A stretch of DNA of 64,000 bases from contig CALUHR010000013.1 in the NCBI GenBank assembly GCA_944320495.1, positions 160,001 through 224,000 on the forward strand, given 5' to 3'. Shown here one piece after another: positions 45,307 through 47,664 of the stretch; position 1 is the first letter of the stretch; every line of letters starts with the position of its first letter. The position numbers were made by a program, and so were the translations under genes. The notes below the pieces were generated by a model, which saw only the letters and a program-made list of their open reading frames with translations, did no database searches and was not told the origin of the DNA. Source of the DNA: Candidatus Methanomethylophilaceae archaeon. Its GTDB lineage: Archaea; Thermoplasmatota; Thermoplasmata; Methanomassiliicoccales; Methanomethylophilaceae.

Positions 45307-46659
45307 ATGAGGATGTTCGGAACCAACGGCGTGCGCGGGATAGCGAACGACAGCCTCAGCTGCGAACTGGCACTGCGCATGGGGAAGAGCATCGGGACCG
45401 TGCTCGGCCCGACGATAGCTCTCGCCTATGACACACGGACGTCGTCCCGTATGATCAGGGATGCGGTCCGTTCCGGACTCGTCTCCGTGGGCACGGACGT
45501 CATCGACCTCGGAATGGTCCCTACGCCCGCGCTCCAGCATTATGTGAAGATGCGTCCCGGGATCACCGGGGGGGTCATGATCACCGCCTCCCACAATCCT
45601 CCAGAGTACAACGGCATCAAATGCATCTCCGGCGACGGGACGGAATGCTCCCACGAGGAGGAGCAGAGGATAGAGGATGCGTATGACGGCGACATCCGGT
45701 GCGTAGGATGGGAGTCCATCGGTACAGTCCGCCACGTCCTGGATGCGGCCGAGGAGTATGTGGACTCCATCGTGTCGAAGGTCGACCGCGAATCGATCAG
45801 AGCGGCCCGCCTCACCGTCTGCGTGGACTGCGCCAACGGCGCCTCCGTGGAGACGGCGCCGATGCTCATGAGCAGACTGGGAGTCCGTGCGATCACGATC
45901 AACGGCAACCCGCAGGGCGAGTTCCCCGGCCATCCGAGCGAGCCCACGGAGGAGAACCTGGAGGACCTGAAGAGACTGGTGGTGGACACCGGTGCGGACC
46001 TCGGGATAGCCCATGACGGGGACGCGGACAGATGCGTCTTCGTGACGTCCGATGGACGGTTCGTCAGCGGGGACCTCTCCCTGGCCCTCCTGGCGAGGAA
46101 CGAGCTCTCCAGAAACGGCGGGGGCAGGGTAATGGTTACCGTCGCCACGTCCAAGGTCGTGGAGGACACCGTCGAATCGAACGGCGGAGAGACGGTGTAC
46201 ACGGCGGTCGGGTCCCCCATAGTCGCCCGCGAGATGATCTCAGGGGGAGGGGTCTTCGGCGGGGAGGAGAACGGCGGACTGATCTTCGCCGACCACCAGT
46301 ACTGCCGCGACGGCGGCATGGGAGCCGCGAGGATGCTGGAGTCCATCGCCAGGAACGGCCCCCTGTCCGAACAGGTGGACTCCCTGCCGAGATATCGCAC
46401 CATCAAGAAGGCAGTGAGATGCCCGGACTGCCTCAAGACCGAGGTCATCGAGACCGTGTGCAGGATGCACGAAGACGGCAGGATAGACCGCAGGGACGGG
46501 CTTCGCATCGATTTCGATGACGGCTGGGTCCTGATACGTCCGTCCGGAACGGAACCTAAGTTCAGGATCTACTCCGAATCCAAGGATGATGCGGTCGCCG
46601 AAGCACGCTCCGAATCGTTCGTGAGGGAGATCGAGGACATCATCGGAGAGAGAGCCCGA
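45307..46659 (+). CDS. Phosphomannomutase/phosphoglucomutase
   Basis: FGTNGVRG, ITASHNP, DGDADR, GEENGG, RPSGTEPKFRIY; CGA at 46657-46659; standard stop at 46683. Confidence 0.95.
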
Positions 46660-47664
46660 TCGCTCCCTGACGACCTTCCCTAACTTCGCCTTGAGCTGCA
46701 TCACCGGCTTCACCTCGGCTGGGTCTATGCCGCGATGCTCCGCCATGTACAATGACATGTAGTCTCCGAGGATGATCGCCCGGAACATGTTCTCGAGCGC
46801 GGACTTCCCTCCGAGCCTGATGACCTTCACCGGTGCGCCGCTGACCTCGAGCTCCTCGGCGACGCCCTCCAACACCCCGGTCCCGCGGCACAGACCGTCG
46901 TCCGCACCGATCAGGAGGATGAACAGGTAGTCCTGACGATCGGTACCGGCCCAGCGGGACACCTCTGGGCATCCCAGCTCCGGAAGCGACTCGCAGAAGG
47001 CCACGAACTTGGAGTTCTCGTTGACCTGGGTCTTCCATCTGAACGCCACCGACTGCATGCTCACATCCGAGCATACGACAGGCACCTTCCCGACCAGGGC
47101 ATCCACCAGCTCATGGGCCAGCGATCCCTCCGCGAGGGCGGCATCGTCCCGGTAGTCGCGGAGCGAGGGGATGAACGCCCTGATCCTCCCGGACAGGTCC
47201 GGTCCACCTGCCGAGCGTATGACGGCCAGCGTGTAACCGATCATGTATCCGATCGCATGCCTGGGATGCATGTCCTTCGGGAGGGGGATGACCTTGTCGC
47301 CTCCGGACTCGGCGGCCTCCCTGAGCAGACCTCCCGACGTCAGCACCACGACCCTGCAGCCGCACGCCTTCGCCTGATGGTACATGTTCATCGTCTCGGC
47401 CGTGTTGCCGGAGTAGCTGGACACTATCGCGAGAGTCCGCGGGCCGACCCAGCTGGGCAGTTCCGGGTACTTCATCAGGCACAGGTACTTGGATGACTCC
47501 GCATAACAGCAATCTGCCGCGAAATCACCGCTGACGGCGGAACCACCGACTCCGCAAAGCAGGATGCTGTCGCAATCGAAGACCTCCCCGGGATCGTATG
47601 ACAATGACTTCTCGAGATCGTCGACGAAATGGTACAGCTGCTCCTTCACGGTGAGACCGGCCAT
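46660..47664 (-). CDS. Bifunctional phosphoglucose/phosphomannose isomerase paralogue A
   Basis: GVGGS, SYSGNTAET, HPR, KTQVNENSK, LKAKL; lacks the HNE motif; CGA at 46660-46662; standard code adds 140 aa antisense to the mutase gene. Confidence 0.88.

Follow-up and report, generated by a model that had tools for sequence, protein, structure and literature searches.

Two convergent genes of an archaeon of the family Methanomethylophilaceae meet on the palindrome CGATCG, and it is highly probable that both of them, a sugar phosphate mutase gene and an isomerase gene (paralogue A), end at the CGA that each reads there. CGA would then be a fourth, somewhat leaky termination signal, interchangeable with TGA, in the GTDB genus holding UBA71 (Ca. 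Methanoprimaticola); no RNA or peptide data are available for this reading. The source is Candidatus Methanomethylophilaceae archaeon, assembly GCA_944320495.1, contig CALUHR010000013.1, of which the window, the whole stretch of DNA analysed, covers 64,000 nucleotides (160,001-224,000). Numbered within the window, the features are the following:

45307..46659, plus strand: archaeal phosphoglucosamine mutase (GlmM, PGM/PMM superfamily), 450 aa, ending ...IIGERA and then CGA at 46657-46659
46240..46659, minus strand: 140-codon extension of isomerase A under table 11, antisense to the mutase gene
46657..46662, no strand: CGATCG palindrome, where the terminal CGA of the plus-strand gene meets the terminal CGA of the minus-strand gene with a gap of 0
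46660..46683, plus strand: the 8 extra mutase codons under table 11 (RSLPDDLP, CGA counted) and TAA
46660..47664, minus strand: phosphoglucose/phosphomannose isomerase-like gene (bifunctional type), paralogue A, 334 aa, ending ...GKVVRE and then CGA at 46662-46660
47664..48578, minus strand: isomerase paralogue B, ending on TGA, with a 1-base overlap with the ATG of paralogue A (TGATG)
50519..50524, no strand: second zero-gap junction in the window, TGATCG, between a plus-strand gene ending on TGA (49766-50521) and a minus-strand gene ending on CGA (50522-51532)

Direct reading of the sequence gives CGATCG at 46657-46662. The mutase gene begins with the ATG at 45307 and has an in-frame CGA as codon 451 (46657-46659), and isomerase A begins with the ATG at 47664 and reaches an in-frame CGA at 46662-46660, which bears out the zero-gap abutment described in the initial annotation. 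Under table 11 the mutase gene would stop at the TAA at 46681-46683, 8 codons beyond the CGA, and this TAA could serve as a back-up stop in case the CGA is read through. The isomerase A frame stays open under table 11 for 140 codons past the CGA, to 46240, and runs antisense across the mutase C-terminus, IRPSGTEP included, as had also been recognised from the sequence. We read this extension as untranslated antisense of the mutase gene, a reading for which there are neither RNA nor peptide data. None of the other Arg codons in the mutase core, the isomerase A core and paralogue B (approximately 39, 21 and 24) is an in-frame CGA.

Comparison with protein families had been proposed in the initial annotation in order to locate the true ends of both proteins. 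The mutase passes the curated cut-off of TIGR03990 over the whole profile (543.1 bits, cut-off 439; profile positions 1-443 of 444 on residues 1-441 of 450), and all four PGM_PMM Pfam domains were found in it. Its earlier label, PMM, was right about the superfamily, and archaeal phosphoglucosamine mutase (GlmM) is the better name. For isomerase A, the Pfam profile bact-PGI_C (PF10432) scores 110.7 bits, above its cut-off of 24.5, and is completed (151/151) six residues ahead of the CGA. TIGR02128 scores 186.1 bits, below its cut-off of 213.9, with profile positions 21-307 of 308 on residues 31-328 of 334. Isomerase A belongs to the family by domain, without its precise enzyme specificity being established. 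The distance from the end of the profile to the CGA is 5-9 residues in both genes, and a Pfam search of the 140-aa isomerase tail found no family. The corresponding tail measures 5, 9, 37 or 354 codons in those orthologues whose end is likewise a CGA, a variation which indicates that it is not conserved as protein; in relatives with a standard stop, the open isomerase frames have 328-335 aa. Since the two readings of the mutase differ by only 8 residues, its case rests on the orthologues and on the genome-wide pattern.

The homologous junction was compared in 12 genomes of the genus. It reads TGATCA in four, CGATCG in three and TGATCG in one, and the others have offset arrangements of TGA and CGA. 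TGATCA was also found at this junction in five further assemblies, and CGATCG in two other species. The occurrence of TGATCA at orthologous loci had been predicted from the sequence of the window alone, and the intermediate TGATCG is present as well. Mutase orthologues have TGA 0-4 codons from the position of the CGA, and at the isomerase end the sole difference between sister metagenome-assembled genomes is TGA versus CGA. On the tree of the two proteins, TGA and CGA were exchanged at least three times at the mutase end and at least twice at the isomerase end. The divergent species G008 is uninformative as an outgroup for the junction, its two genes being co-directional. Back-to-back TGATCA, with a T after each stop, is common in the family; an ancestral junction of this kind probably became CGATCG by T-to-C changes on both strands, and the TGATCG of a sister species would be a surviving intermediate. 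Restriction avoidance of TGATCA was also considered as the origin of CGATCG and was ruled out, as the observed/expected ratio of TGATCA is 1.05 genome-wide. CGATCG itself is somewhat depleted in the genome (observed/expected 0.72).

The behaviour of CGA in the whole genome was analysed with gene calls from a simple self-trained codon model, which is not a validated gene finder. With CGA as a fourth stop, 1698 genes were called, of which 1192 end on TGA, 416 on CGA (about a quarter of all), 57 on TAA and 33 on TAG. CGA has a frequency of only 0.37 per 1000 codons in the centres of open reading frames. In 231 open reading frames the codon-usage score falls from +0.45 just before the CGA to -0.70 just after it, the non-coding expectation being -0.67, and no comparable step was found at the control codons CGG, CCA and TGT. 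Only about seven in-frame CGAs in the genome lie between two stretches that both look coding. With CGA counted as a stop, the coverage of contig C13 rose from 82.7% to 88.0% and the overlap conflicts were halved, and adding CGG instead merely fragmented the genes. Among 252 convergent pairs, 30 have a gap of exactly 0, against three to six pairs at each gap of 1-4. All 30 zero-gap junctions lie on YGATCR (14 on CGATCG, 14 on CGATCA or TGATCG, and two on TGATCA), and this abutment exceeds chance. The next ATG is overlapped as CGATG by 51 of the 244 CGA-ended genes that have a same-strand neighbour. The median distance to an in-frame back-up stop is 7 codons after CGA ends and 13.5 after TGA ends. 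The genome G032, from an outgroup genus, uses CGA as an ordinary sense codon and shows no step in coding score, and its coverage falls when CGA is added as a stop. Three criteria for a sense-to-stop change are satisfied, in that CGA is all but absent from gene interiors, is placed at the ends or stops of homologues, and gives a better gene model when counted as a stop. The earlier inference that CGA terminates both genes is supported, the coding signal stopping at CGA genome-wide and relatives carrying TGA.

The genome retains a tRNA-Arg(UCG), which is under purifying selection. Its 31-39 pair, the last of the anticodon stem, is broken in 25 of the 27 genomes of the genus in which this tRNA was detected, and the remaining two, G008 and G015, have C33 instead. 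The other four pairs of the anticodon stem covary across the 25 mismatch-bearing genes, and in the outgroup all 19 copies have 31-39 paired. BLAST had suggested that the tRNA is absent from G030, G046 and G114; this was overturned by a covariance model, which detected it in each of them. The release factor aRF1 is encoded by a single gene. No genus-specific change relative to the outgroups was found in its NIKS or YxCxxxF motifs, and A27D is the only genus-specific change in the N domain. At the YxC position (human L126, yeast L123) the protein has Arg (YRC), family-wide, and for this reason the residue alone leaves unexplained why only the UBA71 genus switched. As far as the sequences allow us to judge, no release-factor change accounts for the switch. 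The codon for Arg88 of aRF1 is CGA in 10 of 10 genomes of the genus, and outgroups use any Arg codon there. In-frame CGAs also persist inside a Flavodoxin_4 domain and between GmhA and GmhB, in the latter case without a start codon after it, and the CGAs at these three places indicate that the codon must still be translated as Arg some of the time. CGA cannot count as an absolute stop, given that tRNA-Arg(UCG) persists along with a few conserved in-frame CGAs. That tRNA-Arg(UCG) is kept but altered, together with the conserved CGA in the aRF1 gene, leads us to read CGA as a leaky stop.

The same tRNA could be taken to mean that CGA is simply unassigned, or hungry, so that ribosomes stall on it and are freed by a rescue pathway, aRF1 not reading the codon at all. 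The anticodon arm of tRNA-Arg(UCG) is abnormal across the genus and the recognition motifs of aRF1 are unaltered, which speaks for this, and in the divergent species G008 CGA is gone from genes (0.05 per 1000 codons), yet it makes up only about 2% of gene ends, which looks like an unassigned stage of the codon. We nevertheless regard stalling as unlikely. A quarter of the genes, CGATG-coupled ones included, would need rescue in every round of translation, and a Pelota-type factor lacks peptide hydrolysis. Moreover, a eukaryotic release factor can itself release at CGA: yeast eRF1 does so, more with its L123R, L123F and L123Y variants, and these mutants favour UGA (Wada and Ito 2018, PMC7379694).

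The mRNA might also be edited from C to U, each terminal CGA becoming UGA and the code remaining standard. The two triplets are one C/U change apart, and TGA stands at these positions in relatives; there are no RNA data. Inside genes, CGA occurs out of frame 8,726 times as NCG|A and 33,926 times as NNC|GA, in total 42,652 with an observed/expected ratio of 0.92, and this abundance rejects a DNA-level avoidance of CGA. As CGA is excluded in the reading frame only, translation is implicated, rather than a DNA artefact or a frame-blind editing. Given this frame-specific exclusion, an editor recognising the triplet would rewrite thousands of codons, and the approximately 416 terminal sites have no context in common except a preference for T at +4. 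Editing would also alter the conserved CGA that encodes Arg88 of aRF1. Furthermore, C-to-U editing of mRNA is not known to us from archaea, and we hold this explanation to be very improbable.

If the standard code applied without editing, the isomerase would have lost its TGA and become extended by 140 aa or a pseudogene, the mutase would have gained 8 residues, and the two genes would abut by chance. The frames are indeed open under table 11, and a tRNA-Arg(UCG) exists. However, some 416 genes behave alike, their coding signal dropping abruptly at CGA, and there are 30 zero-gap junctions on YGATCR. Neither does the isomerase tail, which is without a family and not conserved in length, suggest a real extension, and the four-stop model fits better here and worse in the outgroup, so this account can hardly be maintained. 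A sequencing or assembly artefact, with C written for T at some TGA stops, can be practically discounted even though this genome is in 14 contigs and about 91% complete, because the same CGA usage recurs across numerous independently assembled genomes from different species, single-contig ones among them, CGA is excluded only in frame, and the usage is accompanied by matching changes in the tRNA and the aRF1 gene.

Returning to termination at CGA, we find it reasonably probable, though short of secure, that CGA is a genuine fourth stop read by aRF1 across the high-GC Ca. Methanoprimaticola (UBA71) and is kept deliberately ambiguous. CGA would no longer be among the ordinary sense codons in the genus. 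The single aRF1, with Arg at the YxC position, is inferred to free the peptide at CGA, for which there is no release assay, and it may do so in competition with a weakened tRNA-Arg(UCG), the functional effect of the 31-39 mismatch being likewise inferred. With its 31-39 pair open, this tRNA would insert Arg at a few programmed sites. Putative sites of this kind are the aRF1 codon for Arg88, which would act as a feedback sensor, and the GmhA-GmhB junction, where the fusion would be regulated; there is no experiment on regulation by the CGA within the aRF1 gene. Bacterial RF2 autoregulates via an in-frame UGA in prfB, using a +1 frameshift. The aRF1 gene similarly holds in frame the codon that its product would terminate, in the layout of a feedback loop, but here synthesis of the complete aRF1 depends on decoding CGA as Arg88 in place of a frameshift, and regulation is without experimental support. 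In the same ambiguous-codon reading, G008 could be a preserved "unassigned" intermediate of the sort predicted by the codon-capture model.

Sense-to-stop codes occur in organelles (NCBI tables 2, 22 and 23), with AGA/AGG in vertebrate, UCA in Scenedesmus and UUA in Thraustochytrium mitochondria. There, as with CGA here, an amino-acid codon vanishes from gene interiors and appears at gene ends. Those codes serve tiny genomes with a handful of genes, whereas here a free-living archaeon of about 1.8 Mb and approximately 416 genes are concerned, and, unlike in organelles, the cognate tRNA is kept along with a few conserved in-frame CGAs, which gives CGA a dual-use appearance. The yeast eRF1/eRF3 system (PMC7379694) is similar in that a poor tRNA and the release factor compete for CGA, a lone CGA at a gene end detectably stops translation, and the position-123 variants that enhance release include the Arg found in Methanomethylophilaceae aRF1. 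In yeast, however, this is a weak side reaction on reporters, and here it would be the normal end of a quarter of the genes. A preprint on KACI (bioRxiv 10.64898/2026.04.02.715157) concerns two archaeal assemblies from hydrothermal vents in which CGA may be a stop: recognisable protein domains lack CGA, and the author raises the stop-codon idea. Those assemblies belong to another lineage, the change is coupled to CGG-to-Trp, tRNA-UCG is absent and stop use is not inferred; in contrast, the present case offers evidence from gene ends and from the comparison of orthologues, and its tRNA is retained, though altered. The bacterial Arg-codon reassignments found with Codetta (Shulgina and Eddy 2021, PMC8629427) also concern rare Arg codons (AGG, CGA and CGG) that change meaning after disuse under compositional pressure. 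They are sense-to-sense and occur in low-GC genomes, whereas here the change is sense-to-stop at about 62% GC, with a T-to-C pressure favouring CGA over TGA. Finally, tRNAs with a 4-bp anticodon stem alter decoding (NAR 2026, PMC13092985, and work cited there), and in both cases a stem one pair shorter goes with a changed codon reading. In those tRNAs the top pair, 27-43, is open and near-cognate stop reading is gained (PMC13092985); in tRNA-Arg(UCG) it is the loop-closing pair 31-39 that is open, in a tRNA cognate to the codon turned stop, and the effect has not been assayed.

The locus itself is a compact test case, with two CGA stops in one six-base palindrome and TGA versions in sister species. 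If CGA terminates, standard gene callers would be wrong on about a quarter of the proteins in a methanogen group common in the human and animal gut, the errors being spurious tails, spurious fusions and the absorption of neighbouring genes, as exemplified by the isomerase frame of 474-520 aa. A literature search found no prior description of a CGA stop in the UBA71/Methanoprimaticola clade. To our knowledge, the cellular reassignments described so far are stop-to-sense changes or amino-acid swaps, and sense-to-stop is accepted only in organelles. Termination at CGA would mean that a release factor of the archaeal/eukaryotic type can in nature come to read CGA in addition to UGA, and that the codon-capture route can be traced by stages inside one genus. 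If true, this would be the first case of a free-living organism that has turned a sense codon into a stop.

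The window corresponds to C13:160001-224000 of an archaeal assembly that comprises 1.77 Mb in 14 contigs, with a G+C content of about 62%. Direct reading of the sequence places the ends of two convergent genes on a single palindrome:

46657-46662, both strands: CGATCG, shared by the two gene ends.
45307-46659, plus strand: mutase gene, ATG at 45307, codon 451 being CGA at 46657-46659; the standard-stop reading (table 11) adds 8 codons before a TAA, the first back-up stop.
47664-46660, minus strand: isomerase gene (paralogue A), ATG at 47664, CGA at 46662-46660; table 11 adds 140 codons, to 46240, before any back-up stop.

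The initial annotation, which described CGA ends abutting here with zero gap and an isomerase that, under the standard code, would run 140 codons antisense through the conserved C-terminus of the mutase, was correct on both counts. No other CGA occurs in frame among the arginine codons of the mutase, the isomerase or paralogue B, the tandem neighbour of the isomerase. The TGA of paralogue B shares one base with the ATG of paralogue A (TGATG, 47662-47666, minus strand), and the two tandem genes are translationally coupled.

The same annotation proposed to check where the protein families end, and both end just before the CGA. The plus-strand gene encodes an archaeal phosphoglucosamine mutase (PGM/PMM superfamily). 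Its TIGR03990 match scores 543 bits, the cut-off being 439, and this profile is exhausted by residue 441 of 450. The minus-strand product is, on profile matches, a phosphoglucose/phosphomannose isomerase-like protein with a SIS domain: Pfam bact-PGI_C reaches its last position (151/151) six residues ahead of the CGA, and TIGR02128, scoring under its equivalog cut-off, extends to position 307/308, matched to residue 328 of 334. No Pfam family was found in the 140-residue tail, and the isomerase open frames of remoter relatives with standard stops are 328-335 amino acids long.

The convergent pair is kept in 11 other species of the same GTDB genus, the one that holds UBA71, itself named Ca. Methanoprimaticola (PMC8727293). 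TGATCA, the counterpart sought at orthologous loci, was present at the homologous gene ends of four species, where both genes end back to back in TGA, and at five more junctions among 14 further public assemblies. CGATCG occupies the junction in the genome under study and two others; one species has TGATCG, with TGA ending the mutase and CGA the isomerase, and the remaining species have TGA or CGA gene ends in an offset arrangement. Beyond CGA-ended isomerases the next standard stop lies 5, 9, 37, 140 or 354 codons away, and the tail is therefore not a conserved protein segment. Sister metagenome-assembled genomes among the further assemblies differ at the isomerase end solely by TGA versus CGA, and a tree of the two proteins requires at least three TGA/CGA switches at the mutase end and at least two at the isomerase end. 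Such repeated switching indicates that TGA and CGA behave as synonyms at gene ends. In G008, a divergent genome of the genus, the two genes adjoin but are co-directional (G008:C1:639015-641360, L128-L129), and the back-to-back junction is thus specific to the subclade holding the genome under study. Contigs with close orthologues of this archaeal locus (L150-L160) also occur in public bins that bear bacterial titles (Bifidobacteriaceae, Bacteroides ovatus, Prevotella hominis, Dialister hominis and others), which are probably mislabelled records.

The pattern extends to the whole genome. A self-trained codon-usage model supplied the coding scores and gene predictions. In central ORF regions, in-frame CGA has a frequency of 0.37 per 1000 codons. 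A CGA falls in the second half of 231 table-11 ORFs; averaged over these, the coding score was +0.45 for the sequence leading to the CGA and -0.70 over the five codons after it, against a non-coding expectation of -0.67; no such step was found at the control codons CGG, CCA and TGT. Only seven in-frame CGAs in the entire genome are flanked on either side by sequence that looks coding. A model with CGA as a fourth stop gives 1698 genes and 87% coverage, with 1192 ends at TGA, 416 (24.5%) at CGA, 57 at TAA and 33 at TAG. On the contig carrying the window, adding CGA as a stop raised coverage from 82.7% to 88.0% and halved the strong candidates lost to overlaps, while CGG as a mock stop only fragmented genes. 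The negative control was a 200-kb stretch of the complete genome G032, which belongs to a different genus of the family. Its genes use CGA as a normal sense codon (1.22 per 1000 codons) without a score step, and coverage drops once CGA is counted as a stop.

Convergent pairs with a gap of exactly zero number 30 of 252, whereas each gap of 1-4 accounts for 3-6 pairs. All 30 lie on YGATCR (14 CGATCG, 14 CGATCA or TGATCG, and two TGATCA). The window contains a second:

50519-50524, both strands: TGATCG, where a CDP-alcohol phosphatidyltransferase-like gene (plus) ends in TGA and an unassigned 336-aa gene (minus) ends in CGA.

Back-to-back TGATCA also occurs in standard-code relatives (3/29 convergent pairs in G032, 1/28 in G008), so the layout is older than the code change, with CGATCG as the recoded version. 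Among CGA-ended genes with a same-strand neighbour, 51 of 244 share one base with the next start codon (CGATG). The share of CGA among NGA ends varies with the next base (T 40%, C 24%, G 18%, A 11%) and reaches about 70% where the junction is tight (CGATG, YGATCR). Taken with the family ends and the orthologous junctions, this genome-wide pattern supports the proposal that CGA terminates both genes; that CGA marks true gene ends is in our judgement highly probable, in the absence of direct RNA or protein evidence.

Out of frame, CGA is abundant inside genes (8,726 NCG|A, observed/expected 0.92; 33,926 NNC|GA). The exclusion is therefore frame-specific, which points to decoding on the ribosome. 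A C-to-U RNA editor making UGA from terminal CGA is contradicted by this frame-specificity if it recognises the triplet anywhere, and a site-specific form is not formally excluded without RNA reads. Frame-specificity also argues against a sequencing artefact and against avoidance of CGA at the DNA level. Avoidance of TGATCA does not account for the CGATCG palindromes, the genome-wide observed/expected ratio of TGATCA being 1.05.

If CGA is decoded as a stop, arginine tRNA and release factor would compete for it. The tRNA-Arg genes present have the anticodons UCU, CCU, CCG, GCG and UCG, the last lying outside the window:

G000:C13:413317-413390: tRNA-Arg(UCG) of the genome under study.

In 25 genomes of the genus (loci including L015-L019, L071-L087 and L097-L099) this tRNA has a mismatched 31-39 pair (C.A, A.A or U.C), which closes the anticodon loop, while the other four stem pairs remain Watson-Crick through compensatory changes; in the family's other genera, 31-39 is paired in 19/19 copies. 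U is near-universal at tRNA position 33, and in the divergent complete genus genomes G008 (L100) and G015 (L106) the anticodon loop reads CCUCGAC, which puts C at that position. Since compensation preserves the stem, tRNA-Arg(UCG) is maintained by selection although its anticodon arm is abnormal, and we infer that it is a weak competitor at CGA.

The single-copy aRF1 does not differ from outgroups in its NIKS and YxCxxxF motifs, and A27D is the only genus-specific change in its N domain. The x of YxC, aligned with human L126 and yeast L123, is Arg family-wide. Yeast eRF1 shows detectable peptide release at CGA, where it competes with tRNA-Arg, and release is stronger in the UGA-biased variants L123R/F/Y (PMC7379694). 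It is therefore plausible that aRF1 could release at CGA, as a family predisposition and not as the trigger. Release by aRF1 in competition with the tRNA is the mechanism that we favour, with appreciably less assurance than the gene ends themselves. In 10/10 genus genomes the codon for Arg88 of aRF1 is CGA; outgroups use CGC, CGT, AGA, AGG or CGA there, and CGA also at other Arg sites. Full-length aRF1 thus requires CGA to be read as Arg. A feedback loop would be laid out in this way, though its existence is an inference.

Two other in-frame CGAs lie in coding context:

G000:C8:55277-55840 (L235), plus strand: Flavodoxin_4 gene, CGA within the domain at residue 137/187.
Window 33618-34718, minus strand: joined frame of GmhA (residues 35-185) and GmhB (192-329), a single CGA exactly between them.

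The first is either read as Arg or truncates the gene. GmhA is a sedoheptulose-7-P isomerase and GmhB a heptose bisphosphate phosphatase; the phosphatase DxDxT motif follows the CGA without an intervening start codon, and the arrangement resembles a read-through fusion or a single frame yielding two products. The median distance to an in-frame back-up stop is 7 codons past CGA ends versus 13.5 past TGA ends, a comparison partly confounded by CGATGA junctions.

The literature search turned up no earlier description of a CGA stop in this clade. In two hydrothermal-vent archaea known domains lack CGA, possibly a stop there (2026 preprint, 10.64898/2026.04.02.715157); Codetta-type methods cannot infer stops. 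Although still without transcript or peptide data, the analysis supports both genes ending at CGA as a leaky terminator of this lineage, interchangeable with TGA. In G008 (53.5% GC) CGA is nearly gone from genes (0.05 per 1000 codons), yet the share of genes ending in it is only about 2%. This combination fits a stepwise history: genes would first have lost the codon, the tRNA would then have been altered, and GC pressure may finally have led CGA to accumulate in place of TGA in species of high GC content.
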